Shown here in pieces: positions 27,940-56,739 of a DNA stretch of 64,000 nucleotides. The first letter of the stretch is position 1. Each line of letters starts with the position of its first letter. Under the pieces are notes generated by a model. That model ran no database searches. It was not told the DNA's origin and worked only from the letters and a program-made list of their open reading frames with translations. The DNA comes from a virus: the IMG/VR virus record IMGVR_UViG_3300025010_000048, positions 1-64,000 of that record; one strand, given 5' to 3'. The position numbers and the translations under genes were made by a program.

Positions 27940-29329
27940 GTCAACTACTCCCACCTACGCTTCGCTTAGAGGTGTGAGCTTGTAACTACCCGGAAGTGCA
28001 AACGAGATAATCTCTCCTTCCTTAGAATGGTGTTACATTAGGGCAGGTTGACATCTACCCACTTATAAAGGTTATACCCCTATAAGTACTTCAACGATGT
28101 ACTCTATTCCTTTTCGTTGAAGATTCATTGCTCCTATACGGTCATCATTTGATTTGTATCCACAGTTACGACAGCAAAAGATGTGAGCTTTCTTATTGCG
28201 ATTACTTCTCTCTGTATGTCCACACTTGGGGCAAGTTTGAGAAGTGTACTTAGGATTAACAGCTATTACTTTTGAATTATTTAGTAATACCTTATATTCT
28301 AACATTTGTCGTAGCTGATAAAATGACCAGGAGACTGTCTCGTATCTATCTTTAACTCTAACACGTTCTGTAGCATTACGAATACCGGCAAGGTCTTCTA
28401 TTGCAAAAAGAGTATTAGCCCCATATTGATTAACGAGTGCCTTTGATACTTGATGGTTTACATCATGCATCCAACGGTTTTCTCGTTGACCAATTCTCTT
28501 CAATCTTCTGCGAGAAGAAGCTGTACCTTTTTGTTGTAGTTGTTTACGCAAGTATTTGTAATAAGAACGTTTGGCTTTAATTTTTCTACCATTAAAGAAT
28601 ATTGACTTACCTTTTGAATCATAGGTTACTGCAATAAAGTTAATACCTAAATCAACGCCAACAATACTATTGATATCATAATCTGATACCATATCAATCT
28701 CTTTAGACATTGGTATGTGTAAGAAGAACTTACCGTATTTATGCACTAACTTTGCTGTACCAAAAGTCCATGAGTTGTCAAAGTATCTTTCCATACCTTT
28801 AATATCAAATGGTACTTTAATGCGTCCATCTAATGTATTAATAGAGAATATGCCTTTCGTAAGTAGATAATCTCTATTCCATACTAAATCATATTCTGGT
28901 TTTTTAAACTGTATTTTAGTCCAATCGTGCTTATTGCTTTTAAGAGTCTTGTATCTTGCTATTACAGTTTTCATAACCGACTGGGACATTTGAGAACGCA
29001 AAGAGAAGTTGCTACGCAAATCATTGTAGGCTATTTTTTGTAACTTTGATTGAGATAACTCTTTTGTATTAAAGATTATATCAGACACAAAGTTACATCC
29101 TTTACGATAGGCATTAAGAGTTCCCTGGAGTAATATGATTTGTGCTGATGTTGGATTGATTTTGATTTTAGCAGTAACAGTTAATTGCATAGTATACACC
29201 AACTTTCACTAACTATAGAAAGTATATCATATTAGTGAAAACATGTGCAACAAGAATATTAAAGAAGAAAGGAGGGAAGGCGCATTCCTCCCCGACTTTA
29301 GAAGATCGGGGTATCCTGCGCCGACCTAG
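27940..29329 (-). mobile_element. IS200/IS605-family, TnpB-only (IS1341-type) element
   Basis: Left-end hairpin 29279-29322; right end finishing GGGAGTAGTTGAC; TTCAT abuts the left end; removal restores GGAGGTACGCC-ATG. Confidence 0.85.
28072..29202 (-). CDS. tnpB: TnpB RNA-guided nuclease
   Basis: RuvC GVDLG, IEDL, DRIGAMNL; zinc finger CPKC...CRNC; catalytic residues present. Confidence 0.95.
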   Translation of the reverse strand: MVYTMQLTVTAKIKINPTSAQIILLQGTLNAYRKGCNFVSDIIFNTKELSQSKLQKIAYNDLRSNFSLRSQMSQSVMKTVIARYKTLKSNKHDWTKIQFKKPEYDLVWNRDYLLTKGIFSINTLDGRIKVPFDIKGMERYFDNSWTFGTAKLVHKYGKFFLHIPMSKEIDMVSDYDINSIVGVDLGINFIAVTYDSKGKSIFFNGRKIKAKRSYYKYLRKQLQQKGTASSRRRLKRIGQRENRWMHDVNHQVSKALVNQYGANTLFAIEDLAGIRNATERVRVKDRYETVSWSFYQLRQMLEYKVLLNNSKVIAVNPKYTSQTCPKCGHTERSNRNKKAHIFCCRNCGYKSNDDRIGAMNLQRKGIEYIVEVLIGV

Positions 29330-30460
29330 ATGAAGAAACAAAAAACCAACATGTTAGGCGAAGCACTGGAGGGCATAAAAACAGCATGGAGGCACCGCAA
29401 AGGCTACGAAATACCTGCCGCAATACTAGACACCCTAGACGCTCTTTACCCCCTCGATAAACCCAGACCATTACCGATCCGTAAAGGAATTCAGTGCACA
29501 GAAACCGGCTGGCACATGATATTTACACTTAGACCAGGCACATCATTTAACACCCTAAAAAATCAGCAGGAATATTTTGAGGATGCTACCGGGCTAAATG
29601 TGGAAATGAGCAAAAAAGCAAACTTTCTACACATCAACATAAACACTAACGAGATACCGAAAAAGCTACCGTACAGCTGGAATTATAGCGGCAATATAGA
29701 CCTACCAATACCTGTCGGACTTAGTAAGCAAGGATTGGAAGTGCTACCGCTTGAAGAATCTCCGCATTTACTTATTGCCGGTGTTCCTGGGTACGGAAAA
29801 TCCAACTTTTTACATGTCCTTATTACTTCCCTGCTACCAGTAGCAAGAATCAGCATTATAGACTTAAAGCGGTTGGAGTTTGCCTACTTAAAAGATTATG
29901 CGGCACTAGCTAGGACGGAGGAAGAATCTCTGTTATTAATGCAGTCAATAGAAAAGGGCATGGAACAACGTATCAGAACACTAGAGAGGGCAAAAGTAGT
30001 CAAAATTCAAGACTACAACAAGAGGGCGAAGGAACCATTGCCTTTTATCGTTGTTGTGATTGATGAATTAGCGGAAATTAGCTGTACTAAAACAATTAGA
30101 CTTATCGACAGAATAACCAGACTTGCCAGGGCGGTTGGAATTTCAGTAGTTGCGGCAACACAAAGACCGTCAACGAAGGTTCTCCCGGGAGATACCCGGG
30201 CAATGTTTCAAGCGCGACTATGCTTCCAAGTTGCCGATGAACTCAATAGTCGTATGGTGCTAGGTGAAACCTGTTCCCTTGCCGCATATCTACCAGGTAT
30301 AAAAGGCAGGGCAATTTATAAATTCGGCATGGATACCCAGGAAGTCCAGACTATGCACCTTCCGGTCAGTCAGGCCAAAAAATTGTTAAAGGGGGTGAGT
30401 ATGGATGCTTTTACCGAGTGGACCAATATCACACCGAGCGCGCGGCTATTACCGCGATAA
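29330..30460 (+). CDS. FtsK/SpoIIIE-family ATPase
   Basis: PHLLIAGVPGYGKS, IIDLK, VVIDELAE, RLARAVGI, ATQRP. Confidence 0.92.
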   Translation: MKKQKTNMLGEALEGIKTAWRHRKGYEIPAAILDTLDALYPLDKPRPLPIRKGIQCTETGWHMIFTLRPGTSFNTLKNQQEYFEDATGLNVEMSKKANFLHININTNEIPKKLPYSWNYSGNIDLPIPVGLSKQGLEVLPLEESPHLLIAGVPGYGKSNFLHVLITSLLPVARISIIDLKRLEFAYLKDYAALARTEEESLLLMQSIEKGMEQRIRTLERAKVVKIQDYNKRAKEPLPFIVVVIDELAEISCTKTIRLIDRITRLARAVGISVVAATQRPSTKVLPGDTRAMFQARLCFQVADELNSRMVLGETCSLAAYLPGIKGRAIYKFGMDTQEVQTMHLPVSQAKKLLKGVSMDAFTEWTNITPSARLLPR

Positions 30461-31079
30461 CGAAATTGTATGGCGAGTAAGTAGTCACCGATGCCTAAAC
30501 ACAGAGCAAATACAGATATTACTATTTCCTATGACCGCATCAGGTAAGCGGAAATGTCAACAGCGACTAAAGATATTAGTCGGTCCCAAACAAAAACGCC
30601 TACAGCGTTGGAGATATGACTTAGAACAACCTTATGCTTACTACCGGGAGCGACTAGAGCAGATGCAACATACCGTATTATTAAATTGGGCGGTTATCTG
30701 GATAGAACGAAACTTAAAGTCATGGGAGGAAATTCACTCCGTTAGCTATAATCAAGGCATGGGAGTATTAATTTCCGATTGCTTTATTGCCATAAAAAAC
30801 ACTATCACAGGCCAATTCAGATTTTTATTCATCGAAATGGACATTCATCACCCGGCAAACGAATTCGACAAGGTACGGAAGTACAACAAACTATTCGAGA
30901 AACTGCCGGAACAATGGTGGGTTAAACAAACCAAGAGATTCCCTAGGACCCTGCTAGTCACCGACAACGAGCGCAAGTTAAAGAAAATTAACGAGTTGAT
31001 TGAGTCTGAAAACCGTAACGGGTTAGAATTTAAAAGTTATCTTGTTAGTAATATCAGAAAACAAACTATAGGAGGTTAA
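30405..31079 (+). CDS. replication-relaxation (Replic_Relax)-family protein
   Basis: RD..I.......L..EQI HTH, H, D, IEMD...K..KY PD-(D/E)XK-like motifs; overlaps the FtsK gene. Confidence 0.75.
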   Translation: MLLPSGPISHRARGYYRDNEIVWRVSSHRCLNTEQIQILLFPMTASGKRKCQQRLKILVGPKQKRLQRWRYDLEQPYAYYRERLEQMQHTVLLNWAVIWIERNLKSWEEIHSVSYNQGMGVLISDCFIAIKNTITGQFRFLFIEMDIHHPANEFDKVRKYNKLFEKLPEQWWVKQTKRFPRTLLVTDNERKLKKINELIESENRNGLEFKSYLVSNIRKQTIGG

Positions 31080-38044: not shown

Positions 38045-38425
38045 TTACAGATTTCTCGCTTTTGTAATAGTATTGAGCAGTTCGGCCACAATCTCAGGTG
38101 GTATACGTTCCTCGTATGCTTTCTTGGCTAACATCATCCAAGGTAAGGATGCTTCATCTAACAGCATTTGCCGCAATTCTTCTGTCATGGCATCGTTAAC
38201 CTCTTTTACGTCAAAGTATGTTCTGATTGATTCCTTGTGGAAATACAAAGGACTTATGTTTAATGCTTTAGCTAACTTTTCAATAGTTTCAATACCGGGA
38301 TTTTTACGCTCACCCCTTTCAATTTGACCAATGGTATTTAGGGCCACTTTAGCTATTTCAGCTAATTTTTCCATCGAGTACCCACGCCTCATTCTTAGAT
38401 TGTGCAACTTATCCTTCAATTCCAT
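38045..38425 (-). CDS. XRE-family prophage repressor (cI-like)
   Basis: LR..RGYS..KLA.......I..IE.G...NP....I.KLA.AL. Confidence 0.88.
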   Translation of the reverse strand: MELKDKLHNLRMRRGYSMEKLAEIAKVALNTIGQIERGERKNPGIETIEKLAKALNISPLYFHKESIRTYFDVKEVNDAMTEELRQMLLDEASLPWMMLAKKAYEERIPPEIVAELLNTITKARNL

Positions 38426-38541: not shown

Positions 38542-38620
38542 TACTCTATTGGACGAGCAATATTTTTTATCCACCTCCTACCTTTAAGAGTAGGATTTAA
38601 CCGAAAAGGAGGTTTAACCC

Positions 38621-38860
38621 TTGAATCTAAAGTTGGTCGGGCAGAACATTTGCCGACTGAGAAAACAACAGGGTATTTTACAACAGACACTATCTGAGCT
38701 AACCGGGTTAACTCAATCTAATATATCAAATATCGAAAACGGTAATACGGGTGACATTTACCTGGGAACCTTAGTAAAAATTGCCGTTGCCCTTAATTGC
38801 AGAGTATCGGATTTGACTTGGGAATCTAGTCATCAATCAAATGTGCCAGAAACAGTATAA
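38621..38860 (+). CDS. Cro-like XRE HTH protein
   Basis: HTH_3 pattern, divergent from cI. Confidence 0.85.
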   Translation: MNLKLVGQNICRLRKQQGILQQTLSELTGLTQSNISNIENGNTGDIYLGTLVKIAVALNCRVSDLTWESSHQSNVPETV

Positions 38861-38977
38861 CACACTTTTGTTTTTAAATGTGCAATTATGGGCATTTTTA
38901 TAAAAGTTTTTTGAATGACTCAATATTGATTGAGCAATAAAAAAACCGGGATGGATGCCCGGTTGCCGGTTAACTAA

Positions 38978-39145
38978 CTACTGCAATATTCTCCTAGCCT
39001 TACTAATATTAACATCAATATGCTTTTTAATAGCTTCCTCTAGTTCTTCGGTAACAGTTTTATTGTTTGCAGCCGCAATCATTCTTAGTTTTTGCATCAA
39101 TTCAGCATCTAAATTCAAACTGGTTTTTGCTTTTTCGGCCATCAT
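38978..39145 (-). CDS. ribbon-helix-helix protein (55 aa)
   Basis: KTSLNLDAELMQKLRMIAA....TVTEELEEAI. Confidence 0.7.
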   Translation of the reverse strand: MMAEKAKTSLNLDAELMQKLRMIAAANNKTVTEELEEAIKKHIDVNISKARRILQ

Positions 39146-39208
39146 ATCACGTCCCTACAAAATTATTTTTATATTTTCATTTTTCCATTATAACTTCAAA
39201 AAAAGATA

Positions 39209-39237
39209 TTGACAAGGTGAGGATATACCATTATACT
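39209..39237 (+). promoter_or_regulatory. sigmaA promoter of the minigene/Com operon
   Basis: TTGACA-17-TATACT. Confidence 0.85.
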
Positions 39238-39309
39238 ACATATAGGGATTGGCAATGATTGCACATTAAAGAAACATACATACAAACTACCAAACAGGAG
39301 GCACGCCAA

Positions 39310-39333
39310 ATGGTCAAATGTCGAAGCGACTGA
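39310..39333 (+). CDS. 7-aa minigene MVKCRSD
   Basis: AGGAGG-8 nt-ATG GTC AAA TGT CGA AGC GAC TGA. Confidence 0.65.
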   Translation: MVKCRSD

Positions 39334-39373
39334 AACCTACCGGTTGGTTAAAAAAATAACCGGAGGTGAGAAA

Positions 39374-39397
39374 GTGATTAAGTGTAGGAGTGATTGA
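39374..39397 (+). CDS. 7-aa minigene MIKCRSD
   Basis: GGAGGTG RBS; GTG ATT AAG TGT AGG AGT GAT TGA. Confidence 0.65.
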   Translation: MIKCRSD

Positions 39398-39447
39398 AAA
39401 ACTAAAGACCATACACAAACCAAATATCAAAAAGGGAGGAAGATAGC

Positions 39448-39495
39448 ATGGTAGTACGGAGCACATATATTACAATAACTAAATTGAGAGGTTGA
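39448..39495 (+). CDS. 15-aa minigene MVVRSTYITITKLRG
   Basis: GGGAGG RBS; its 3' end carries the RBS of the Com-like gene. Confidence 0.5.
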   Translation: MVVRSTYITITKLRG

Positions 39496-39500
39496 CGCCT

Positions 39501-39671
39501 ATGCGACATAAGGAAGCACGTTGCAGTAAATGTAAGAAACTTCTTGGGCGGTACAGCATAGCGCAGGACTTAGAGATTCAATGTCCTCGCTGCAAGACTT
39601 TAAATATAATTAACGATTATCTACAACTAAATAATTTAAACCCAGAGAGCCTTAGAGTCCCAGCGGTTTAA
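39501..39671 (+). CDS. Mu Com-like zinc-ribbon regulator (56 aa)
   Basis: RCSKCKKLL...EIQCPRCKTLN. Confidence 0.85.
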   Translation: MRHKEARCSKCKKLLGRYSIAQDLEIQCPRCKTLNIINDYLQLNNLNPESLRVPAV

Positions 39672-39691
39672 TATTTCGAGAGAACCTAGAG

Positions 39692-39731
39692 TTCCAGTGA
39701 AGTATTAATACTACTGGGATTCTTTTTGTTT
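39692..39731 (+). terminator. terminator/attenuator after the Com-like gene
   Basis: TTCCAGT.AAGTAT/ATACT.ACTGGGA stem followed by TTCTTTTT. Confidence 0.7.
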
Positions 39732-39742
39732 ATTTTTAGGAG

Positions 39743-39988
39743 GTGAAAAAAATTAGCGGCTCTATAAGAAAAATAGACTCAACAGGTCGTGTCGTTATGC
39801 CGGTTGATTTTAGAGAGCAACTTGGTTGGAAACTTGGCGACGAGGTTGAAATTAACATACTGGGTAACGAAATATTAGTCAAGGCATATCGGCCAGGGTG
39901 TTACATGTGCGGTTCACAGACCGACTTAAGGCCGTACAGGGGATTTCAGATGTGCCAGAATTGCCGGGGTGAGATAGGGGCATTGTAG
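39743..39988 (+). CDS. AbrB/MazE-family regulator with C-terminal zinc ribbon
   Basis: RKID..GRVV.P...R..L....GD.VEI; CxxC...CxxC. Confidence 0.88.
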   Translation: MKKISGSIRKIDSTGRVVMPVDFREQLGWKLGDEVEINILGNEILVKAYRPGCYMCGSQTDLRPYRGFQMCQNCRGEIGAL

Positions 39989-41029
39989 GACTTATTTTAT
40001 AGAAAAGGAGGACGAGCAGGATGGAGTTTAAGGAGTGGGATAGGGTTGTTATCGAAAGTATTCCTCCATCACTAAAAGGCAACAAAGGAACCATTGCAAG
40101 TTCAAAAATTGATATGTTTATGGGTAGTATATTTTATGCCGTTAAATTAGATGATTATGTAGATTATGCACACGATTGCAATGGTTTGTGTGAAAATGGT
40201 TATGGTTATTGGATACATAATAAATATTTAACCATTATCACCAACAAAGAGGAAACGGCATGAATAGCAACGACTACACAGAACTAGCTAAATACACGGC
40301 ATCATGGGCAAACTCAATTCGATTGGGTAATGCTGAGATTGTTGCCGAAACATTGGAAAGGGTATCGGTGCGCTGTATGGAGTTTGCGAGTGTGCCGGAC
40401 GAGTGGGAAAGATGCGCTGCGAAAAATGCGGAGCAGAAAAAGTCGAAGTTGACTTTACCGGCACCGAAATGGAAGTGGTTGGCGGATTTCTTTTCGAGAG
40501 GGAAACAACCGACAGTGTGATGGTCTGTCCTAACCAGGAGTGTTTTGAGAGGGTTGAGAGAGAACCGGATTTTATACCATTTTGAGGTGATAGAATATGT
40601 GGATAGGTAAAAGCAAATGCTGTCTTAGGTGTATTAATTACAAGGCATATTTTAAATTTCCACTTGCAATTATAAAATCATGCGGAAGCAAAGTATCTTG
40701 CATCAGATACGGAGATTGCGATAAGTGTCTTGACTTTAGGTGTGATTGTTTTAAACCAGAATCTCAAACAGATTCAAGTCATAGTCTAGACACAATACCA
40801 TTTTAGCAGGAATAGCCATGAAAATAACCATAACAGACATACCGGACATGGATGATATTAACATTGAGGATGCCGGAAAATTCATCCTTATAACTTCTGA
40901 ATCAAAAGGATTGCGTCTTGACGGAAATCCTAATTTAGAATTCCTGTCTTTTGCCAGTAAAAGACTAAACTATGAGGTAGACAGAAAGTTGTTTACAGAA
41001 GATAGTCGAAACAAAAAGGAGGATTAACT

Positions 41030-43142: not shown

Positions 43143-43774
43143 ATTTTACCGCAACACCGGAGGACATCGCCATACTAGACAAAACAATCTCCGATGTTGC
43201 CAGGATATGCGCGGAGTTGGATAAATGGTATAGGGAGGTTTAGGTTAGTGAGCATTGCATGTGATTGCAGTAATAATGATGGCGATTATCCTGAGTTTTC
43301 TAAGGAAACATTTCCAAATGCAAGGAAGCAATATATTTGTTATGAGTGCAGAGAGAGAATTAAACCGGGAAAAAAATACCATAACGTAACTGGCAAATGG
43401 GACGGAGTTATGGACACTTACCGAACTTGCATGGCATGTTATTACATCCGTAAACATTATTGTCCTAGTGGTTATGTTTTTGGTGAACTTAGACACAATC
43501 TTAACGAGTGTTTAGGGTTTGACTATACCGAAGTGCCGGACGAGGAGGACGATGATTAAATGTCAGCAGTACAGTTAATTGTCAATAACGGCAAACTGAA
43601 ACTCCTAGGCGGTGATGATGCCATGATGCGAGTTATTGAGAACTTCTCACCCATTGAGAGAGCGTTTCGGTTGGTTTTCGAGGACTTATACAGCTATCCC
43701 GATGGCACGAGATTAGACGTACATGGGAGTGTGCGGGGAGAACATATCTTATGGGGCAGGGTGGAGGTAGCAAG

Positions 43775-44104
43775 TTGAATAATGATTTCATTTGTATAAA
43801 TTGTGGTAAATGTTGTGGTCCTGTGCCCATATCAAATACCGATTGGGATAAAATTATATTAACAGTAGGTGAAATGTCAAAACGGGAAATAGACAGACTA
43901 ATCAGTCAACCAAGCTGCGCGATACATGCACATAAACCGCTAATTTGTAGACTACAGGGAACTCATAAGGGATTACATTGCCCGAATATGCCGGGGGGTG
44001 ATACTGGCGGCGATACTGAATTCTTCAAAGAGTTTGGTGAGCATGGCGAAAATTTCAAAGGACTGCTAACCGAGGTTATTAGTTGGAACGATATTTTACC
44101 CTAA
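43775..44104 (+). CDS. YkgJ-family cysteine-cluster protein, internally shortened paralog
   Basis: CINCGKCC...CAIH..KPLICR. Confidence 0.7.
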   Translation: MNNDFICINCGKCCGPVPISNTDWDKIILTVGEMSKREIDRLISQPSCAIHAHKPLICRLQGTHKGLHCPNMPGGDTGGDTEFFKEFGEHGENFKGLLTEVISWNDILP

Positions 44105-49165: not shown

Positions 49166-49573
49166 ATGAGCGAATTTATCTGCATGAACTGCGGAAAATG
49201 TTGTGGTCCTGTGCCTGTCTCAAATACGGACTGGGACAAGATAGTAACAGCAGTAGGAAATATGAACTTTGCCAACATTGAACATCTTGTTAAGCAGAAA
49301 AGGGAAAGCATGACCTGTATTTTACGCGACACTTTTTATAATAAATGTGCAATACATGAGCATAGACCGCTAATTTGTCGCTTACAGGGAACTCAGGAAG
49401 GATTGCCTTGCCCGAATATGCCGAGATACGCCAAGGGTGATAATGGCAGGGTTGCCGTGAATCGTGACTTTGGCGAGAATGGCGAGTATTTCAAGGGAAT
49501 TTTGAGTGACAGTATTGGTTGGAAAGAAATTCTGGAAGTTGTTAGGGAGAGGAAGGAGGTAAACAATGCGTAG
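49166..49573 (+). CDS. YkgJ-family cysteine-cluster protein
   Basis: CMNCGKCC...C.......CAIH..RPLICR. Confidence 0.8.
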   Translation: MSEFICMNCGKCCGPVPVSNTDWDKIVTAVGNMNFANIEHLVKQKRESMTCILRDTFYNKCAIHEHRPLICRLQGTQEGLPCPNMPRYAKGDNGRVAVNRDFGENGEYFKGILSDSIGWKEILEVVRERKEVNNA

Positions 49574-49973
49574 ACCAACAGTATACCTTTCCGGTAAAAT
49601 GGCCGGTTTGAGTAAAGAAGAAATGAACGACTGGAGAGAGAAAGCGGCGGGAGACTTAGTTGAGGCAGGTTTTTGTATACTTAATCCGGTAAATACCGAC
49701 TTCGGAAGCAATGTAACCGATAGGGAAATCATTGACAGTAACGACTATCAGATTGGACACAGTGACATTATCCTTGCTGAGTTAGACTATGAGCAAATTT
49801 CCATCGGTACAATTTGCGAGATTGTGGAGGCGAGAAGGCAAGGTAAACCCGTAATAACATGGGGTACTGCCTATAACATCATCAATCATCCGCATATTCG
49901 GGGCAGGATTACTAGACACTTTGAGTTTTTGGTCAATGCCGTTCAGTACATTATCGAAAACTATTACTTGTAG
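49566..49973 (+). CDS. nucleoside 2-deoxyribosyltransferase-like protein
   Basis: VYLSG.M...WR...NP...D...I..SD......SIGT..E...A...GKPV. Confidence 0.82.
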   Translation: MRRPTVYLSGKMAGLSKEEMNDWREKAAGDLVEAGFCILNPVNTDFGSNVTDREIIDSNDYQIGHSDIILAELDYEQISIGTICEIVEARRQGKPVITWGTAYNIINHPHIRGRITRHFEFLVNAVQYIIENYYL

Positions 49974-50314
49974 GAGGTTATGTATTGCTAGAATTATTTG
50001 ACAAAGCACTACTTTATACAACTGTATGTTTAACCTGCTTGCCGTGGATTGTCGTTATTATAATAGGCATTAGGGGCGGTAAAGTAACTGTTGAGTTTGG
50101 GAGAAATAATAAGGAGGCAACCACAAATGCCAAAACAGAAACGCCACAAACAACCTAAGCTGAAAATCATAGTTGACCTGCCCAATGACGGCAACCGGAA
50201 ATGGTACGACGAGAAGTATCGGAATATGTTCCGGGATCGCAGGGGAGTTTTGCTGCACGACTATAGGGACGGAATGTCGCCGGGGTATTGCGTGGCAGCG
50301 GTGGAGGTATTTAA

Positions 50315-52225
50315 TTGATTAACGAATTAATAATGGGATCGCTATTTGACGGAGTTGCAATGCTCCCTTTTGCAGCAGAACTTAACGGAATTAGAGCAGT
50401 GTGGGCCAGTGAGATAGAAAAGTTCCCGATAGCGGTAAGTAAACACCATTTCCCTGACATGAAGCACTTGGGAGATATTTGTGGCATAGGATTATGTACT
50501 TACATTACACATTTTAGCGGAACTAAGTGTAATTTTTATATAAACACAGCTAAAGACATTCTGGTTAAACCAGTAGATATAATCACATTTTCAAGCCCTT
50601 GTCAAGATTTGTCAGTCGCCGGTAAAAGGGCAGGTTTGGCGGGAGAGCGTTCTGGTTTGTTTTCTGAGGCGGTAAGAATCATAAAAGAAATGAGGTTTGT
50701 CACAGATGAAATGTACCCAAAATACGCAATCTGGGAGAACGTACCAGGAGCATTTAGCTCAAACAAAGGACAAGATTTTAGAACCGTGCTTGAAGAAATC
50801 ACAGCGTCCGAAATTCCAATGCCTAAGTCTGGAAAATGGGCAAACGCCGGAATGGTCAGAGGGGATGGGTATAGTGTTGCTTGGCGAGTCTGTGATGCGC
50901 AATACTGGGGAGTCGCCCAGCGTCGTAAGAGAATCTTCCTTGTCTGCGATTTTAGAGGACAACGTGCCGGAGAAATACTTTTTGAGTGCGAAAGCGTGTC
51001 AGGGGATTTTGCGGAGAGCGGAGAAGCGAGGCAAGAAGTTGCCGGGAGTGCTGGAAATGGCATTGAGACAACAATCAGGATATTTGACATTGGAGATAGA
51101 CGCAGAGTCGCAGACGAGTCAGTAGGCGTAACACCTACACTGACAATGAAAATGGGTACGGGTGGAAATAATGTCCCCGTAATTTTAAAGCGAGATACAA
51201 TAGCCTTTAACGGCAGACAAGACCCTGTTTATGGACAAGTTACCGGGGCGCTTGATACCGATCGAGCGACACAGTGCATTGCATACCCTGAACCTGCAAA
51301 CGCTCTTCTCGCAAAAGGTAATCTGTCATATCGTGCTGATGTAGATAATTTAGTTTGTGCTGTAGATATCCGCAACCTTTACGAAACTGAGGAATTAAGT
51401 GAAACGCTGCAATCCAAGCAAACAGGTGGTTACTCACTTAACTATCAAAATCCTGTCAGGGTTCCGATTGGAGGAATTAATTATGGCAATGCCGACAAAA
51501 CCAACGCCAGAGAAATATTGTTCGCACTGTGGCGAGAAATTGGAACGGAAGCGTTTTGCAAATGGGCGGTTAGAGTCGTTGAATACTTTCAACAAAAGGG
51601 AATACTGCAACCAGAAATGTATGGCGAAGGGGTTCGAGAGCAAACCGAAACCGAGATCGGAAAACTGGGAAACGAATCATTCCAGATCGAGAAAAATTGT
51701 TCCACCGGGTCCTTGCGAAATATGCGGAAAACCGAATGCTTTAGATGTACACCACAAAGACGAGGATTGGACAAACAACGAACCAGAGAATCTTCAAAGG
51801 ATTTGTCGGAGTTGTCACAACTTAAAGCACAGGCAGAGAAAGCGTTGCGCCATTTGTGGGGAAGTAGCAAAGGGTTATGGATTATGTACAAAGCACTTAC
51901 AGAGATACAAGAAGCACGGAGATCCGATGATAGAAAGGATAAATCCGAGGAAGAAATGCAAAGTATGCGGAGAACCTGCTCACTCGAAAGAGCTTTGTGG
52001 GATGCACTATATGAGAGCGAAAAGAGCAGGGAGCCTGTAAGATATGCGGTGAGACGACTCCTACCCCTGGAATGCGAGCGACTGCAATCGATGCCGGACG
52101 GTTGGACAGATATCCCCGATGCATCCGATACAGCACGATACAAAGCAATCGGAAATTCGCTTGTGATGAATATAGCTGATTGGATATTTAGTCAGATAGT
52201 AAAGGCAGAGAAAGGAGAACTCTAA
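50315..52225 (+). CDS. C5 cytosine DNA methyltransferase with a very long variable region
   Basis: SLFDG, SPCQDLS.AG, WENVPG, Q.RKRIF, RRL.P.ECERLQ, RYKAIGNS. Confidence 0.92.
   Translation: MINELIMGSLFDGVAMLPFAAELNGIRAVWASEIEKFPIAVSKHHFPDMKHLGDICGIGLCTYITHFSGTKCNFYINTAKDILVKPVDIITFSSPCQDLSVAGKRAGLAGERSGLFSEAVRIIKEMRFVTDEMYPKYAIWENVPGAFSSNKGQDFRTVLEEITASEIPMPKSGKWANAGMVRGDGYSVAWRVCDAQYWGVAQRRKRIFLVCDFRGQRAGEILFECESVSGDFAESGEARQEVAGSAGNGIETTIRIFDIGDRRRVADESVGVTPTLTMKMGTGGNNVPVILKRDTIAFNGRQDPVYGQVTGALDTDRATQCIAYPEPANALLAKGNLSYRADVDNLVCAVDIRNLYETEELSETLQSKQTGGYSLNYQNPVRVPIGGINYGNADKTNAREILFALWREIGTEAFCKWAVRVVEYFQQKGILQPEMYGEGVREQTETEIGKLGNESFQIEKNCSTGSLRNMRKTECFRCTPQRRGLDKQRTRESSKDLSELSQLKAQAEKALRHLWGSSKGLWIMYKALTEIQEARRSDDRKDKSEEEMQSMRRTCSLERALWDALYESEKSREPVRYAVRRLLPLECERLQSMPDGWTDIPDASDTARYKAIGNSLVMNIADWIFSQIVKAEKGEL
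50697..51125 (+). CDS. alternative-frame ORF nested in the methyltransferase (putative beta-type polypeptide)
   Basis: NTGESPS...SSLSAILE..VPEKYFLSAKACQGILRRAEKRGK.LP..L..AL. Confidence 0.65.
   Translation: MSQMKCTQNTQSGRTYQEHLAQTKDKILEPCLKKSQRPKFQCLSLENGQTPEWSEGMGIVLLGESVMRNTGESPSVVRESSLSAILEDNVPEKYFLSAKACQGILRRAEKRGKKLPGVLEMALRQQSGYLTLEIDAESQTSQ
51483..52040 (+). CDS. HNH endonuclease nested out of frame in the methyltransferase
   Basis: Own GGAGG RBS; CEICG...DVHHKD....NN..ENL..ICRSCH; C-terminal C..C......GLC..H repeats. Confidence 0.88.
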   Translation: MAMPTKPTPEKYCSHCGEKLERKRFANGRLESLNTFNKREYCNQKCMAKGFESKPKPRSENWETNHSRSRKIVPPGPCEICGKPNALDVHHKDEDWTNNEPENLQRICRSCHNLKHRQRKRCAICGEVAKGYGLCTKHLQRYKKHGDPMIERINPRKKCKVCGEPAHSKELCGMHYMRAKRAGSL

Positions 52226-52551
52226 TGAAAAACAAAACCACAAAACTACTCCTAACTTTAGGGGTACCGCCGGAAACATCCGGTTATTTATACGCAAGAG
52301 AAGCAATCTTACTAACCCTAAATACCCCGAACTCCTCATACCGTTGGTGCGAAACCTACGACAAGGTAGCGGAAAAATTCAGCACCACCGGCAAGAGAGT
52401 TGAAAGATGTATCCGTCATACACTCAAGAAAACGCAGGAAAGCGGAACTGTAGAATATGTTGAAATGTTTTATAAGAACACAACTAAACCACCTATTGTA
52501 AGTCGCTTTTTAGCTACAGTTGCCGAGTATCTAAAAATGCAGGATAGTTAG
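52225..52551 (+). CDS. Spo0A C-terminal DNA-binding-domain protein
   Basis: LL.LGVP....GY.Y.REAI...Y..VA.KF.TT..RVERCIRH...KP..S.F.A.VAE.L; no receiver domain. Confidence 0.9.
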   Translation: MKNKTTKLLLTLGVPPETSGYLYAREAILLTLNTPNSSYRWCETYDKVAEKFSTTGKRVERCIRHTLKKTQESGTVEYVEMFYKNTTKPPIVSRFLATVAEYLKMQDS

Positions 52552-53555
52552 TCAGTTAGAATCGGAAATAACAGCAAAATTAGCCTTGTACAGGCGACTA
52601 AATATTGCAGGAATAGTTTCGTACCTGCTGTCGTGAATGGGGCGTAGAAGGGGGTTTAAAATGCCACCATTGAAAAGGGTTTTATTGAAAGAAGAACTGG
52701 AATACATGAAGCAATGGGGAGGTAAAGCATCACTCTCCAATATTGGAGTAAATTTACTAATGTCCGAGCAACAACTAGGCGCATATATGAAAAAACACGG
52801 CATACCGAGGGCTAATAAGGGTGCTAGACACCTTGCCGCGCCTGATAAATACGAAGGACCAACATCTTATGTGCAGAGAGGAAAGGACAATAGATTCGTG
52901 AATCTTTTTTCTAGGCAGAGAATCGAAGGAAATATTAGACCGCCAGATAAACCCTGGAGCATGGAAGAAAGTTTCGCTAATCCGATAGTATGTGTGAGCG
53001 CAACCGCAGGCGTTATGATTTGGCGAAATAGTGGCAAGGGTGAGTGTCTATGATTAGGGTTAACGACACAGTAAAACCTCTCCGTGGTCGCAATAAGGAC
53101 AAGGAGGGCGAGGTAAGGTCGGTATATAAAAGCGGAAAATGTTATATTTACTTCGGTAAAAGTAACTATAATTCTTATTTTCCGAGAAATTTGGAGGTGG
53201 TAACAGGTGGGGAGAGGCGGGGCGAGGATTAAGAAGTTAGAGCGCGATAACAAAATATTACTTAAGATAGTTTCTGAACATGCTGTTTCCATTTCTGATA
53301 TTTCTCGCAGATTAGATGGTTATGCTGTGCTGTTTAAAACACTAATAAACGATATGACAACAGCAGGAAATAACGGGAAAACACTTCAATCAGACATTGC
53401 ATTTCTGAATAAGAAGTTGGACGAAATTGAATGTTCCGTTGCCGCATTGAGAGCAGAGCAGGATCATGCGAGGCGTGGATTGTGGAGAAGGTTTTGCGCT
53501 AGGGTTAGGTTGTTTTTCGTGTGATGGATTACCTTTTTAGGTATAATATGTATAG

Positions 53556-54242
53556 TTGGAGGTAAAATTGAGATACATTGTTAGTGTATCAACAGGCAAA
53601 GATTCTACTTGTTTAGCACTATACGCCATAGCAAAATATGGGCGCAAAGATTTAGTTTTTGTAAGTGCTGATACTGGTTGCGAATTTCCGGAAACATACG
53701 AATACCTATATTATCTCGAAAGAAGATTAAATATAAAAATAAACCGCGTCAAAAGCGATAAGTGGGATTATTTTTCCTATTGCCGCCACAGAAGCAAGTT
53801 TCCCGACATAAGAAATAGGTTTTGCACTTCCGACCTAAAGCAAGCACCATTAGCAAAATGGATAACTCATGCAGGTATTGACCGCTATAACGACATTATG
53901 TTAACAGGTGAGCGCAGGGAAGAAAGCGCAAAAAGATCGCAATATAAAGAGATTTACTATAACCCTAAACTCAGGATTGCCGGTTGTCGCCCATTGCTAA
54001 AACTAACTACCAAAGACGTATTTACGGCAATTAGACAGGGTGGACTTGTACCGAATCCAATATATAAACACTTTACCCGCCTCGGTTGTTATGGATGCGT
54101 ATTCAATACCGTTGACGAGTGGGTGCAGTTAAGCAAGTATTACCCTGATTTGTTTAATAAGATTGCAGATTTGGAAAATGAGATTAATTATACTGTCCGG
54201 CAAGGAGAAACATTGAGACAGTTAGTTAATCGGAAAATTTAA
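53556..54242 (+). CDS. PAPS reductase-family (PP-loop) protein
   Basis: SVSTGKDS, DTG.E.PETY, RFCT..LK, G.RREES..R, RLGC..C. Confidence 0.88.
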   Translation: MEVKLRYIVSVSTGKDSTCLALYAIAKYGRKDLVFVSADTGCEFPETYEYLYYLERRLNIKINRVKSDKWDYFSYCRHRSKFPDIRNRFCTSDLKQAPLAKWITHAGIDRYNDIMLTGERREESAKRSQYKEIYYNPKLRIAGCRPLLKLTTKDVFTAIRQGGLVPNPIYKHFTRLGCYGCVFNTVDEWVQLSKYYPDLFNKIADLENEINYTVRQGETLRQLVNRKI

Positions 54243-54257
54243 TGGGAGGAAAATAAT

Positions 54258-54968
54258 TTGCTAAAACCTACAATTATAAATTGTTTCGACATACCGGAAG
54301 TTTGGTATAGGTCGCTATCTGAGTTATATCATACTCATAGCGGCGGCGATAACCGGGAATACCTTGTGCAGCATGGTAGTTTTGAAAATCAGCATAAACG
54401 AAGGGAATTGGATTATTTTATGGCGGTTATCACTAACCCAGGCAATAGACCGTTAACTCCGATTATACCGGAAGGTTTGAGCGTAGCACCTCCGACAGAT
54501 ATGGAGAAAATTGAGAAGTATTTCGCCGAATACATCTATGGTTCAGAGGTTGCTGAGAATGAGGATTACACTTATGGAGAGCGCATACGAATTAGCTTAC
54601 AGAATGTCATAGAGATTCTAAAAAGAACTCCTGACACCAATCAGGCCATAATTGAAATAGGTCAACCTTTAGATATTTACCTGACAGATCCACCTTGCTT
54701 AAGGATGATTGATTGCCGCATCAAAGACGGTATGTTGCACTTCATAATCTACTTTAGGTCATGGGACATATTTGCCGCACTTCCTGAGAATTTAGGTGGG
54801 TTGCAGTTACTTAAAGAGTATATGGCGACAGAGATTGGTTATGAGGATGGAGGCATGATAATTTCCTCTAAGGGAGCACACGTTTACGATTATGTATGGG
54901 AGCAGGTTAAGCAGTTAGTTAGATATAAGGATACCGAAGTAATACAGGAGGTAGATTTAATTGAATAG
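54258..54968 (+). CDS. thymidylate synthase-family protein (short, archaeal-like type)
   Basis: YTYGERI, DPPCLR, YFRSWD...LPENL, AHVY. Confidence 0.85.
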   Translation: MLKPTIINCFDIPEVWYRSLSELYHTHSGGDNREYLVQHGSFENQHKRRELDYFMAVITNPGNRPLTPIIPEGLSVAPPTDMEKIEKYFAEYIYGSEVAENEDYTYGERIRISLQNVIEILKRTPDTNQAIIEIGQPLDIYLTDPPCLRMIDCRIKDGMLHFIIYFRSWDIFAALPENLGGLQLLKEYMATEIGYEDGGMIISSKGAHVYDYVWEQVKQLVRYKDTEVIQEVDLIE

Positions 54969-55431
54969 TTTGCAAAGATATATAAAAATACTAAAATTTA
55001 CCGCTAGTCAGTCGAAATGCAAACGCCGCAAGATCGGTGCTCTTGCAATACTAAATAAAGGATATATCTACAAATATAATAGTATTCAAAAGGGCGATTA
55101 TGGTATCTGTGATGAATGTCCAAGGATAGGACAGGAACACGGAAACTGGTCAGGTAACCAAGAATGCCCGGCGATACACGCAGAAGAAGCGGTTATCTTG
55201 AACGCGGCGCGTGGAGGCTATTCTCTGGAGGGTGAGACGTTACTCGTTACTGATAAGCCCTGCAACCGATGTTCTAGGTTAATAGTCGGAGCAGGATTTA
55301 AAAAGGTTATTTATTTAAGCGATATCGGAAGTAATAATGGCATAGACTACCTCCGCAAATGTGGCGTTGAAGTTGAGCAGTACCAAGATGCCGTTATTAT
55401 AGAAAATCCAGATGAAGGGGTGCTGGAATAA
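54961..55431 (+). CDS. dCMP deaminase-family protein
   Basis: S.C.RR.IGA, IHAEE, PCNRC. Confidence 0.88.
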   Translation: MNSLQRYIKILKFTASQSKCKRRKIGALAILNKGYIYKYNSIQKGDYGICDECPRIGQEHGNWSGNQECPAIHAEEAVILNAARGGYSLEGETLLVTDKPCNRCSRLIVGAGFKKVIYLSDIGSNNGIDYLRKCGVEVEQYQDAVIIENPDEGVLE

Positions 55432-55829
55432 TGAATATCCATGAAATCAGAGAGTTAGGCAAAAATTTCTGCCAAACAGTTGGTTCAGCACACTACAGGG
55501 AGAACAGTATTGACCCTATAGAGTACGCCATAGCTAACAATATGATTGAGGATTTTTGCCTGATAAACATTATTAAGTATGCCAGCAGGTTTAAGCATAT
55601 CCGTAACCTTGACGATTTGAAGAAAGTTTCCGATTACTCACATATCCTGTGTGGGGTGGAGTTAGAGAAAAAGAATAAAGTTTATCCCGTACTTATACAG
55701 CAGAAACAAAGCAATCACCTGAAAAATTCTGATATTTGCGGTGATTGTAAAAAGGAAGGTAATTGCGACGAACCATGCGAGAAGTTGTATAAGTCTAATA
55801 TTCCAAATAGACCGGAGGTAACTGACTGA
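55431..55829 (+). CDS. DUF3310-like protein
   Basis: G..HY....I.PIEY.......F...NIIKY..R......DL.K. Confidence 0.75.
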   Translation: MNIHEIRELGKNFCQTVGSAHYRENSIDPIEYAIANNMIEDFCLINIIKYASRFKHIRNLDDLKKVSDYSHILCGVELEKKNKVYPVLIQQKQSNHLKNSDICGDCKKEGNCDEPCEKLYKSNIPNRPEVTD

Positions 55830-56262
55830 TGAAAAAATCCTGCTTAACCTGCAAGCACGGTAAATTTAAGCAGGTTAATGTGTTAGACTATTGGGAGTGT
55901 TCCGAGTATTCTATTTTTTATGCCGGGCAGTGCCGGGCGGGAAACTTTGGATTGTGGGAGGCAAAAGAAGATGCCGATATATAACGATGGCGACACCAAG
56001 GTTTGTATTTTTGGCAAGGGTGATATTTCAGTATGTACCCTTAAATACAATGGAGGTTATTTTAATACGGTGCTTGGTTTAGTGCAGGACACGCAAAGCA
56101 ACCCTATCGGAACCGAAAACAAGCATCATATTGGACTGAGTGCAGACGAAATGGAAACACATGTAATGATGTATTTCGATAATGTGGCATCGGTAGACTT
56201 TGTTATCAGTAGACTTCAGGTTATTCGTGCAGATTTGGTTAGGATGCAGGAGGGTAAAGATA

Positions 56263-56616
56263 ATGGAAATGAATAAGTATCAAGAGTTAGCGGCAAGGAC
56301 TGATACCGTAATAAATACTGATAGATTAATCAAATATGGCCAATTGCTTAATGCCGCCATAGGTATGGTTGGTGAAGCGTGTGAGTTCTTAGAGGTTGTT
56401 AAGAAAATAGTTTATCATGGCCATAACTTGGATAATGTGACAAAAGATAAACTTGTCAAGGAGATTGGCGACACAAAATGGTATTGTGCCAAAGCAGCTA
56501 GACTGTTGGGCGTTCCGTTAAGTTATGTTGCCGCTATTAATATCGAAAAACTTAAAAATCGTTACCCAGATGGATTTAGTGAGGACAAAAGCATTAACCG
56601 AGATATGGACAAATGA
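56263..56616 (+). CDS. MazG-like NTP pyrophosphohydrolase
   Basis: YQ..A.RT, G..GEA.E....KK, EIGD..WY, NIEKL..RYP.GF. Confidence 0.9.
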   Translation: MEMNKYQELAARTDTVINTDRLIKYGQLLNAAIGMVGEACEFLEVVKKIVYHGHNLDNVTKDKLVKEIGDTKWYCAKAARLLGVPLSYVAAINIEKLKNRYPDGFSEDKSINRDMDK

Positions 56617-56739
56617 TCCAAGTTTGGACATGCAAATGCGGTCAGAAAAATCAAGCCAACGTATTCTCACCGGGAGCAACGACAATAAAATGCTCCCGGT
56701 GCTACACCGATTATATTTTAACGGTAAAGACTACCATTA

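Follow-up and report, generated by a model that had tools for sequence, protein, structure and literature searches.

Organisation of the leader

The locus lies within a window of 64,000 nucleotides (positions 1 to 64,000 of the IMG/VR record IMGVR_UViG_3300025010_000048) from a temperate phage that infects spore-forming bacteria. On the plus strand a promoter is followed by three very short open reading frames, here called mg1, mg2 and mg3, and then by a gene of the Com family, and the same layout is present in five distinct metagenome relatives. The window and these relatives make up a set of six distinct leaders, drawn from a few related samples, on which the comparisons below are based. The features of the window are as follows.

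39215..39187, minus strand: divergent promoter, 11/12 matches, serving a gene for an RHH protein at 38978-39145
39209-39214 and 39232-39237, plus strand: sigma-70-type leader promoter, TTGACA, 17 nt, TATACT, 11/12 matches
39252..39262: 11-bp palindrome, GCAATGATTGC, operator-like, just 3' of the -10 element, within the portion of the 5' UTR that is specific to the repressor
39296..39301, plus strand: SD of mg1 (SD1), AGGAGG, 8 nt before the ATG; GGAGG invariant in 6/6 leaders
39310..39333, plus strand: mg1, ATG GTC AAA TGT CGA AGC GAC TGA, seven codons and TGA, encoding MVKCRSD
39335..39367, plus strand: hairpin predicted to mask SD2, in which GGAGG (39362-39366) pairs with ACCU.CCGGUUG, beginning 2 nt past the mg1 stop
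39362-39366, plus strand: SD of mg2 (SD2), GGAGG, 7 nt before the GTG
39374..39397, plus strand: mg2, GTG ATT AAG TGT AGG AGT GAT TGA, seven codons and TGA, GTG start, encoding MIKCRSD
39434..39439, plus strand: SD of mg3 (SD3), GGGAGG, kept in 6/6 leaders, with a predicted unpaired probability of 0.92 in the window
39448..39495, plus strand: mg3, 15 codons and TGA, MVVRSTYITITKLRG; 5 nt separate the TGA from the com ATG at 39501
39501..39671, plus strand: Com-family zinc-ribbon gene, 56 aa (Pfam PF10122 Zn_ribbon_Com, 35.5 bits against a cut-off of 22.9)
39654..39728, plus strand: intrinsic terminator closing the leader-com unit, a hairpin followed by a T-run

The promoter, the two minigenes led by ribosome-binding sites, the 15-codon minigene and the Com-like gene given in the preliminary description are all present in the sequence and, as stated there, the minigenes have no signal peptide. 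The -35 elements of the leader promoter and of the divergent minus-strand promoter overlap, and the TTGAC of the former is invariant in all six aligned leaders. Five of the six also keep the palindrome, a putative operator to judge from its sequence and position; in the exception, L084, it is replaced, and the divergent upstream gene there encodes an HTH protein where that of the window encodes an RHH protein. The 5' UTR is CA-rich and without structure, and the minigenes lie close to the 5' end with near-ideal SDs. Some stretches of the leader also keep their nucleotide sequence, among them CATACATAYAAAC 5' of SD1 and TGAAACC 3' of mg1. No terminator was found inside the leader, and the region 39200-39500 has no Rfam match at E ≤ 1, so that assignment to a known RNA family was rejected.

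The Com-like protein additionally matches phrog_6417, annotated as 'translational regulator' (E = 9.5e-12). Its counterparts in the relatives are 82-91% identical, and the four cysteines C8, C11, C28 and C31, which form two CxxC pairs, are invariant in all six, as the sequence of a member of this family should have it. In the terminator, R' (39714-39723) pairs either with R1 (39654-39663), which lies in the last com codons, or with the repeat R2 (39688-39697). RNAalifold, applied to the six sequences, gave 24 pairs, four of them with two-sided compensatory changes, and the R1:R' stem contains no broken pair. The earlier placement of the minigenes at the head of a lytic operon is upheld as regards the order of promoter, minigenes and com, but the unit is closed by this covarying terminator before the next early gene.

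SD-preceded mini-ORFs are not in themselves unusual: a loose regular expression, applied to the window, found 110 such ORFs with lengths of 2-25 codons, of which 69 lie on the plus and 41 on the minus strand. What deserves attention is rather the presence of two adjoining intergenic mini-ORFs with the same peptide. The back-translated pattern of the heptapeptide has two matches in the window, mg1 and mg2, whereas none of 100 shuffles gave two, and these remain the only two sites in the full 72,330-bp record. Chance is excluded as the origin of the pair.

Conservation of the heptapeptide

All 12 copies of the heptapeptide in the six leaders conform to M-[V/I/A]-[K/R]-C-R-S-D, with a single replacement of the final Asp by Tyr. 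The mg1 peptide is M[V/I]KCRSD in every leader, with all variable sites synonymous apart from the V/I exchange, while mg2 of the relatives encodes M[I/A/V][K/R]CRS[D/Y], with an ATG start in all five. The four synonymous codon differences between mg1 and mg2 and the shared TGA that had been listed for the window are correct. The stop is TGA in 12 of 12 copies, a codon that ends 21 of the 94 window ORFs of at least 80 aa.

The pattern of substitution was assessed at the C-R-S-D codons. Across the 12 copies, all five possible synonymous single-base changes are seen, against one of 31 nonsynonymous changes (hypergeometric P = 1.6e-5). Transitions alone give four of four synonymous and none of eight nonsynonymous changes (P = 0.002), and transitions and transversions combined yield P = 1.7e-4. 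For mg1 and mg2 together dN ranges from 0 to 0.148 and dS from 0.41 to saturation, values that may be compared with those for com (dN 0-0.055, dS 0.47 to saturated). Arg is encoded by CGA, AGA or AGG in different copies, and it is thus the amino acid, not the tRNA, that is conserved. Among the differences listed for metagenome DNA contigs, those within the minigenes (39321 T>C, 39322 C>A and 39391 T>C) are all synonymous and correspond to variants already known. Since the peptide is kept while the DNA changes, selection acts on the peptide itself, and we conclude from these alignments that mg1 and mg2 are under purifying selection at the peptide level. The proposal that conservation lies in the peptide and not in the DNA, and with it that the minigenes would be functional and translated, was first made from the two copies in the window and is in this way borne out by five distinct relatives, each of which keeps the heptapeptide with synonymous changes.

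Within each genome mg1 and mg2 differ at 4-7 of 18 bases and dS between them is saturated, indicating that the duplication is older than the clade and that both copies have been retained. The signals for translation are kept as well: SD1 is GGAGG in 6/6 leaders, SD2 is GGAGG or GGGGG in 6/6 and SD3 is kept in 6/6, and ATG and GTG starts interchange in mg2 and mg3. With SDs and starts present throughout and the peptide rather than the nucleotides conserved, mg1 and mg2 have the properties of translated uORFs, a reading taken from the sequences. The spacer between mg1 and mg2 measures 38-41 nt and the second spacer about 48-52 nt, despite the existence of two unrelated types of spacer sequence. 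The six natural leader variants amount to a ready mutational series.

The third minigene provides a built-in negative control, sharing the leader and conserved in position yet neutral in sequence. Its start, stop and 15-codon length are kept in all six leaders, while its dN (0.18-0.99) and dS (0.10-1.4) are about equal. It overlaps the com SD (GAGAGG, 39486-39491) and its TGA falls between that SD and the com ATG. This stop position and this dN/dS are those of a sequence-neutral uORF for translational coupling, and mg3 is assigned to that class on its sequence.

Predicted RNA structure

The hairpin that masks SD2 in the window has a predicted MFE of -14.4 kcal/mol (z = -4.4). SD2 is paired in the MFE fold of all six leaders (-7.8 to -14.4 kcal/mol), the other five achieving this through two unrelated spacer sequences. 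With a ribosome footprint modelled on the mg1 stop, the unpaired probability of SD2 in the window rises from 0.01 to 0.69. The same footprint raises SD2 accessibility in four of the six leaders, and only in these does folding support a relay that would unmask the mg2 ribosome-binding site; in the two type-B leaders the accessibility barely moves (0.42 to 0.49 and 0.42 to 0.44). A ribosome modelled on the mg2 stop changed the accessibility of SD3 and of the com SD in none of the six leaders; no RNA switch is predicted to link mg2 to com. The coding sequences of the minigenes show no consistent pairing with any downstream SD. Pairing over a longer distance, between mg1 and the 3' portion of com, was considered and rejected, being predicted in L083-L086 only and absent from the window and from L087. 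The paralog-specific codons AGG-AGT-GAT of mg2 also form an SD-like sequence, AGGAGTGAT.

Distribution

The region 38600-40300 had no blastn match among INPHARED phages. The pattern of SD plus heptapeptide matched no stretch in IMG/VR and nothing in a collection of one genome per species covering 185,579 species; a relaxed version retrieved eight IMG/VR stretches, all inside unrelated coding regions and none with the leader layout, and the mg3/com junction retrieved a single, unrelated IMG/VR stretch. As the heptapeptide with its SD is not found upstream of other genes in either collection, it does not appear to be a general stalling module. The alignment of Com proteins found two distant archaeal MAG loci only (35-38% identity) in the 185,579 species genomes, and tblastn with the Com-like protein gave one weak match, to a Pseudomonas phage, among phages. 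Among 80 Com-like loci of IMG/VR a KCRSD-like mini-ORF occurs in none, in any frame, and none of the 16 upstream regions inspected among Com-like loci of IMG/VR holds a comparable leader. IMG/VR searches with the AbrB-like protein alone and with an alignment of five AbrB-like sequences gave none; in Paenibacillus phage Wanderer the annotation table places an AbrB-like gene in mid-operon.

Within the window, Pfam and PHROG scans of 100 ORFs contained no TPR receptor, modification enzyme or exporter, nor any ThiF/E1-like protein, and no phage tRNA or suppressor tRNA is present. The literature searched, supplements apart, holds no phage example of such a leader.

Function of mg1 and mg2

Among the functions put forward for the minigenes in the preliminary description, a role at the level of the ribosome, by arrest or pausing, would fit the sequences best, while the suggestion of a Cys or metal sensor found no support. 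The reading that we tentatively prefer, with somewhat less than even confidence, is that mg1 and mg2 are translated and act in cis as leader minigenes, with ribosomes pausing at their UGA stop. This is suggested by the conserved SDs and starts, the selection on the peptide, the fixed TGA, the spacing, the old duplication, the masking of SD2 and the precedents discussed below.

The pause or arrest, its trigger and its downstream effect are each something that we infer. On completion of the heptapeptide x-[K/R]-C-R-S-D, when peptidyl-tRNA(Asp) occupies the P site and UGA the A site, termination would be slowed or arrested by the nascent peptide, whether of itself or under the influence of a ligand bound to the ribosome or of the activity of release factor 2. 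The hairpin over SD2 would then be melted by a ribosome waiting at the mg1 stop, giving a relay to mg2. Ribosomes parked on the two 5'-proximal minigenes would then set the stability and the translational flux of the transcript comprising promoter, minigenes, com and terminator, and mg3, free in its peptide sequence, would feed ribosomes to the Com-like gene by coupling of termination and reinitiation. Against this stand the weak relay in the type-B leaders, the lack of an RNA switch between mg2 and com, a leader without a terminator, a peptide that is polar and lacks Pro, the small number of leaders (six) and the failure to find the arrangement elsewhere.

We know of no intrinsic termination-arrest motif that the heptapeptide matches. 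Excerpts of two papers on drug-dependent stalling describe contexts into which it fits: chloramphenicol stalling is favoured by a penultimate Ala and, less so, by Ser or Thr (bioRxiv 10.1101/2021.06.17.448903), the heptapeptide having penultimate Ser, and its [K/R]-x-R conforms to the '+x+' macrolide motif (bioRxiv 10.1101/2021.11.29.470318).

It is unlikely, if still worth serious consideration, that the heptapeptide is instead the product for which the genes exist, an unprocessed intracellular effector or signal expressed from two copies on the first early transcript and binding a phage or host protein such as a switch regulator or the Com-like protein. Purifying selection on the peptide with retention of two copies is what such a gene would show, as are strong SDs at the extreme 5' end of an early transcript and a core, [K/R]-C-R-S-D, indifferent to whether residue 2 is V, I or A. 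However, the minigenes are not accompanied by any constant partner gene, the regulator upstream being RHH in the window and HTH in L084, and the 100 scanned ORFs hold none of the receptors, modifying enzymes or exporters sought; the masking of SD2 and the conserved spacings would be superfluous for a pure product gene, and the invariant TGA is left unexplained. To our knowledge, directly translated trans-acting peptides as short as this are almost without example in bacteria. The more particular proposal that the heptapeptide, needing no precursor, export or processing, serves inside the cell as a signal or effector whose target in trans is a regulator controlling the choice between lysis and lysogeny or the switch from early to middle expression, we regard as doubtful; the role as an intracellular ligand raised in the preliminary description is possible. 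Were the heptapeptide to act in trans, its genes would be among the smallest functional genes and would constitute an intracellular counterpart of arbitrium-type control.

The constraint on the peptide could alternatively reflect nothing beyond fast, clean initiation and termination, with mg1 and mg2 serving, without programmed arrest, to load ribosomes onwards to mg3 and com or to shield the mRNA from the 5'-to-3' decay of Bacillota. The 5'-proximal position, the near-ideal SDs and the CA-rich, unstructured 5' UTR would suit this, mg3 shows that sequence-neutral coupling ORFs do occur in the same leader, and for the first of the ermA leader peptides a role in mRNA stability is among the published models (PMC8274638). 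Yet it is mg3, with dN about equal to dS, that behaves as a purely positional ORF, whereas mg1 and mg2 have a dN much lower than dS, and a loading function would not account for the four residues that are kept with little or no change through different codons. We consider this explanation rather improbable.

Very unlikely, in our judgement, is a toxic action of the lambda bar type, in which strong early expression of the minigenes would tie up peptidyl-tRNA(Asp) or release factor 2 and thereby slow host translation. The setting is appropriate, the minigenes having SDs and belonging to an early transcript of a phage; tRNA(Asp) reads the final sense codon in 11 of the 12 copies and all 12 stop at UGA; and overexpressed arrest peptides can deplete tRNA, as excerpted for TnaC and tRNA(Pro) (PMC11890864). 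However, in the series of 3- to 8-codon minigenes excerpted from PMC2490762 inhibition weakens with length, which places seven codons at the weak end, the three Arg codon families mean that tRNA identity at position 5 is not conserved, the phage's own translation would be harmed too, and the masking of SD2 restricts expression. The first two of these points also weaken the earlier proposal of peptidyl-tRNA drop-off.

That the reading frames are accidental and untranslated, the repeat being an RNA or DNA element (such as a site for protein binding or a linker for recombination) or belonging to a gene on the minus strand, is scarcely credible: the partial nucleotide conservation of the leader and the SD-like sequence retained in mg2 are set against variation that is three-periodic and synonymous, interchangeable ATG and GTG starts, an SD retained for each ORF and the lack of an Rfam match.

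Several other candidates were rejected. In the relatives, stops break up the 50-aa ORF that occupies 39314-39466 on the minus strand. Extension by UGA readthrough or selenocysteine is contradicted by the lack of conservation of the extensions between the two spacer types, and a +1 frameshift or ribosome hop from Asp-UGA would lead into frames that reach nothing conserved. An arbitrium/RRNPP peptide is incompatible with 7-codon ORFs lacking a signal sequence and with the absence of a TPR receptor from the 100 window ORFs. Genes for microcin C-type heptapeptides have seven codons, lie beside a ThiF/E1-type adenylyl-transferase and specify a C-terminal residue suited to adenylation; here none of the 100 ORFs encodes a ThiF/E1-like protein and the peptide ends in Asp.

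Comparison with known systems

Very short uORFs with conserved peptides are known mainly as sensors of antibiotics or metabolites that precede resistance or metabolic genes. The present locus differs in standing at the entry to the early operon of a temperate phage, in its two maintained copies and in its fixed UGA stop. If the peptides pause ribosomes, as the cis-acting reading of mg1 and mg2 would have it, the phage would read the translation state of its host on committing to early expression, for which the input might be stress, the activity of release factors or a small molecule bound to the ribosome; the literature searched describes no such input to phage decisions.

Among known systems, those most like this one are MsrDL, toiL and the erm attenuators with two leaders. 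The comparisons with published systems made here draw on excerpts of the papers cited. MsrDL is a hexapeptide uORF of msrD that stalls ribosomes at its own stop codon, the identity of which matters and is conserved in evolution (bioRxiv 10.1101/2021.11.29.470318). Shared with it are a length of 6-7 codons, a stringent SD and a function that resides in the amino-acid sequence and not in the codons. The MsrDL peptide is, however, hydrophobic (MYLIFM), terminated by UAA and single-copy, while that described here is polar, terminated by UGA and duplicated in tandem. Further, MsrDL senses a known drug and prevents a terminator before a resistance gene, as opposed to a phage early leader without an internal terminator, and its stall has been demonstrated, whereas both stall and ligand are putative in the present case.

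The two leader peptides of erm attenuators differ from each other and are longer than the minigene products, which are near-identical heptamers. For ermA two models are given, a relay in which the first stall activates the second, and stabilisation of the mRNA (PMC8274638). As in ermA, ermD and ermB, two leader ORFs follow one another, with the SD2 hairpin here adjoining the mg1 stop. The second erm stall frees the SD of a methylase, the gene regulated; in the phage the corresponding gene is Com-like, and mg2 is tied by no structure to the SD that follows it.

The uORF toiL has 8 codons, of which the first seven specify conserved residues, and acts as a sensor of translation stress by unmasking a downstream ribosome-binding site (PMC12121999). 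The very short uORF with conserved residues is a common feature, but toiL base-pairs with the ribosome-binding site that it regulates and acts with Rho, whereas the coding sequences of mg1 and mg2 lack consistent pairing with a downstream SD.

PepNL has 14 residues and is thus longer than the heptapeptide; there is no sequence similarity, and a 7-residue chain could not make the tunnel contacts of PepNL and TnaC in the same way. Both of these arrest at UGA via release factor 2, and near-cognate readthrough of the UGA relieves the arrest of PepNL (PMC11890864); the UGA invariant in 12 of 12 copies suggests a comparable stop-specific logic.

Like the minigenes of lambda bar, mg1 and mg2 are SD-preceded, belong to a phage early transcript and would act through the translation apparatus. 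The bar mechanism is tRNA-dependent, in contrast to the conservation here of amino acids across codon families. With com-mom of phage Mu the locus shares a gene of the Com zinc-ribbon family (PF10122), here placed after the leader; in Mu, Com activates the translation of mom at a late stage and has no uORF leader. The heptapeptide may also bear some resemblance to the leader peptide of cat-86.

Leader layout and relatives

The arrangement given in the preliminary description, in which a promoter is followed by two heptapeptide ORFs with ribosome-binding sites, a 15-codon minigene and a Com-like gene, is present in full in the window sequence.

Features of the leader (promoter to com) in the window
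39209-39237, + strand: leader promoter, TTGACA-17-TATACT, 11/12 matches
39310-39333, + strand: mg1, first seven-codon minigene, ATG GTC AAA TGT CGA AGC GAC TGA (MVKCRSD), AGGAGG and 8 nt before the start
39374-39397, + strand: mg2, second seven-codon minigene, GTG ATT AAG TGT AGG AGT GAT TGA (MIKCRSD), GGAGG and 7 nt before the start
39448-39495, + strand: mg3, 15-codon ORF, GGGAGG upstream
39501-39671, + strand: com, 56-aa protein (Pfam PF10122, Zn_ribbon_Com), ATG five bases past the mg3 TGA

The com product scores 35.5 bits against PF10122, for which the cut-off is 22.9. A single mini-ORF preceded by a Shine-Dalgarno (SD) sequence is commonplace, a loose regular expression finding 110 of 2-25 codons in the window, and it is the pair that is remarkable. 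The back-translated heptapeptide pattern occurs at only two places in the window, mg1 and mg2, a number reached in none of 100 shuffles; the full virus record (72,330 bp) contains no others. Another SD-preceded mini-ORF, of 8 codons (43552-43578), starts MIKC as mg2 does and overlaps the start region of an ORF at 43560-43778; this is probably chance.

No close kin of the phage were found in INPHARED, in IMG/VR or among 185,579 species represented by one genome each. The search for relatives by ribosome-binding site, heptapeptide and stop that the preliminary description had proposed was carried out on metagenome contigs from JGI, with GGAGG-N(3-10)-heptapeptide-TGA as the pattern, and returned six stretches (L083-L088), all of them with promoter, 5' UTR, mg1, mg2, 15-codon mg3 and Com-like gene in that order. 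The leaders of L085 and L088 do not differ, which makes six distinct leaders, the window included, for the comparisons below; they come from a small number of samples of groundwater and sediment. The related phages are mosaic: in the parts that they share with the window, DNA identity is for the most part about 64-83%, a few short segments exceeding this. Synonymous sites of com are at or near saturation (dS 0.47 to uncomputable), so the divergence is deep enough for unconstrained sequence to have changed.

Selection on the minigenes

The mg1 peptide is M[V/I]KCRSD in all six leaders, and that of mg2 is M[I/A/V][K/R]CRS followed by D or, once, Y. Among the 12 copies of the C-R-S-D codons, all five possible synonymous single-base changes are present (TGT/TGC, AGA/CGA, AGA/AGG, AGC/AGT and GAC/GAT), against one of 31 possible nonsynonymous changes (GAT to TAT in L084 mg2; hypergeometric P = 1.6e-5). 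With transitions taken apart from transversions, the respective counts are 4/4 and 0/8 (P = 0.002; combined 1.7e-4).

Pairwise Nei-Gojobori dN and dS across the leaders
mg1+mg2, codons 2-7: dN 0-0.148; dS 0.41 to saturated
com, first 35 codons: dN 0-0.055; dS 0.47 to saturated
mg3, codons 2-15: dN 0.18-0.99; dS 0.10-1.4

These counts and dN/dS values bear out the earlier claim that it is the peptide rather than the DNA that is conserved, and the TGA stop shared by both minigenes, likewise remarked upon, recurs in 12 of 12 copies; by comparison, 21 of the 94 window ORFs of at least 80 aa end in TGA. In mg3 the SD, start (ATG or GTG), TGA and 15-codon length are kept in 6/6 leaders. It provides an internal control: an ORF maintained for position only evolves neutrally in this leader, unlike mg1 and mg2.

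Within each genome, 4-7 of 18 bases distinguish mg1 from mg2, dS being saturated, and their codons are paralog-specific (AGA or CGA, AGC and GAC in mg1; AGG, AGT and GAT in mg2), which indicates that the duplication predates the clade and that both copies have been maintained. The AGG-AGT-GAT codons of mg2 (39385-39393 in the window) form an SD-like AGGAGTGAT directly 5' of the UGA; AGG is found in all six copies of mg2, and mg1 retains the non-SD-like AGA/CGA-AGC-GAC. A 50-aa opposite-strand ORF over the minigenes was ruled out, being broken in relatives, and no Rfam family matched the leader.

Spacers and RNA structure

The two inter-minigene spacers are of two unrelated sequence types, A (window, L086, L087 and spacer 1 of L084) and B (L083, L085 and spacer 2 of L084), despite which their lengths are kept at 38-41 nt (spacer 1) and about 48-52 nt (spacer 2). 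In the minimum free energy fold of spacer 1 the mg2 SD is paired in all six leaders (-7.8 to -14.4 kcal/mol, z -1.4 to -4.4), its partners being two unrelated sequences that start 1-10 nt past the mg1 stop.

Unpaired probability of the mg2 SD, free and with a modelled ribosome footprint on the mg1 stop
Window, spacer type A: 0.01 free; 0.69 with ribosome
L087, spacer type A: 0.06 free; 0.45 with ribosome
L084, spacer type A: 0.21 free; 0.53 with ribosome
L086, spacer type A: 0.42 free; 0.67 with ribosome
L083, spacer type B: 0.42 free; 0.49 with ribosome
L085, spacer type B: 0.42 free; 0.44 with ribosome

A relay from mg1 to mg2 is supported in part by this modelling. A modelled footprint on the mg2 stop left the SDs of mg3 and com unchanged in 6/6 leaders, and no RNA switch connecting mg2 with com was seen in the folds of the six leaders. 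In whole-transcript folds the minigenes had no long-range partner that recurred across the leaders. Pairing of mg1 (UGUAGA..ACUG) with CAGUAGUCUACA, about 300 nt 3' and inside com, is predicted in L083-L086 only, with a probability of up to 1.0 in L084; as neither the window nor L087 has this pairing, it is probably dispensable.

Possible mechanisms

Any mechanism must cover the following facts: the heptapeptide is selected at the amino-acid level, with Arg drawn from three codon families; both copies are maintained; the stop is always UGA; the SDs are strong and the second is masked; the spacing is kept; and a neutral coupling ORF lies next to the minigenes. Most of these facts would be covered if the nascent heptapeptide of mg1 and mg2 acted in cis, pausing or arresting the ribosome at the stop codon, a reading that we favour tentatively. 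The minigenes may resemble the cat-86 leader.

Such leader devices of 6-8 codons exist, and the literature cited here describes stalling at a uORF stop of conserved identity in MsrDL (bioRxiv 10.1101/2021.11.29.470318), a translation-stress sensor in toiL (PMC12121999), arrest on UGA in PepNL (PMC11890864), and relay and mRNA-stability models for the two ermA leaders (PMC8274638). The penultimate Ser and the [K/R]-x-R of the heptapeptide fit drug-dependent stalling contexts described in two reports (bioRxiv 10.1101/2021.06.17.448903 and 10.1101/2021.11.29.470318, respectively), resemblances taken as leads only.

Action of the heptapeptide in trans seems unlikely. Rather less likely still is that the minigenes provide ribosome loading or 5' protection free of arrest, a proposal that the contrast with mg3 speaks against. 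Toxic minigenes of the bar type are improbable, as both the switching between Arg codon families and the ORF-length dependence given in a published study (PMC2490762) tell against them. That the minigenes form a non-translated element is scarcely credible.

On sequence grounds the locus would be filed as a peptide-conserved sensory or regulatory uORF, a type already known, with its tandem duplication, UGA ending and phage setting being unusual. A full-text literature search, which covered the main texts of papers, found no leader of a phage early operon that carries conserved minigenes of the arrest type.

The com terminator and flanking regulators

Genes flanking the leader
38045-38425, - strand: cI-like gene, upstream of the leader
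38621-38860: cro-like gene, upstream of the leader
38978-39145: RHH/Arc-like gene, divergent from the leader, with its own promoter
39743-39988: AbrB/MazE-like gene, after the com terminator

An intrinsic terminator lies directly 3' of com (39654-39728; also in L083-L087), the final com codons forming its 5' arm. It covaries: of the 24 pairs in its RNAalifold structure four show compensatory double changes, and every pair of the main stem is intact. The loop holds a second copy of the 5' arm (39688-39697) which also tracks the 3' arm. With this duplication, termination could proceed regardless of com translation; alternatively, the arms could be two candidate binding sites for the Com-like RNA-binding protein, with possible antitermination. 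Promoter, minigenes, com and terminator make up one short predicted transcript unit 5' of the AbrB/MazE-like gene and replication genes.

The leader promoter overlaps that of the RHH-like gene, -35 against -35, and a bidirectional terminator is present in the cI-like/cro-like upstream region. An 11-bp palindrome (39252-39262) lies downstream of the overlapping divergent promoters (region 39187-39262). In L084 (1025-1330) the divergent gene encodes an HTH protein, and the palindrome region and first part of the 5' UTR are replaced, homology resuming about 30 nt 5' of mg1. Given this swap, the minigene-com cassette is tied to the early operon and not to a particular repressor; the regulator and putative operator form a mosaic module ahead of a constant cassette.

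Host and other phage genes

The host probably belongs to the spore-forming Bacillota, because the phage encodes a protein made up of a Spo0A C-terminal DNA-binding domain (52225-52551; PF08769, 67.9 bits) and homologues of the AbrB-like protein occur in phages of Paenibacillus, Bacillus, Listeria and Clostridium. The Spo0A-domain protein suggests interference with host sporulation control. At 28072-31079 a minus-strand transposase adjoins an FtsK/SpoIIIE-like ATPase and a Replic_Relax-domain protein, a module that is less usual in a phage than in a conjugative or mobilisable element. A nucleotide-metabolism or modification cluster (49566-57249) encodes a nucleoside 2-deoxyribosyltransferase-like protein, a 636-aa DNA methyltransferase, a PAPS-reductase-domain protein, a thymidylate-synthase-like protein, dCMP deaminase, MazG and a small radical-SAM/4Fe-4S protein; modification of the phage DNA is possible.
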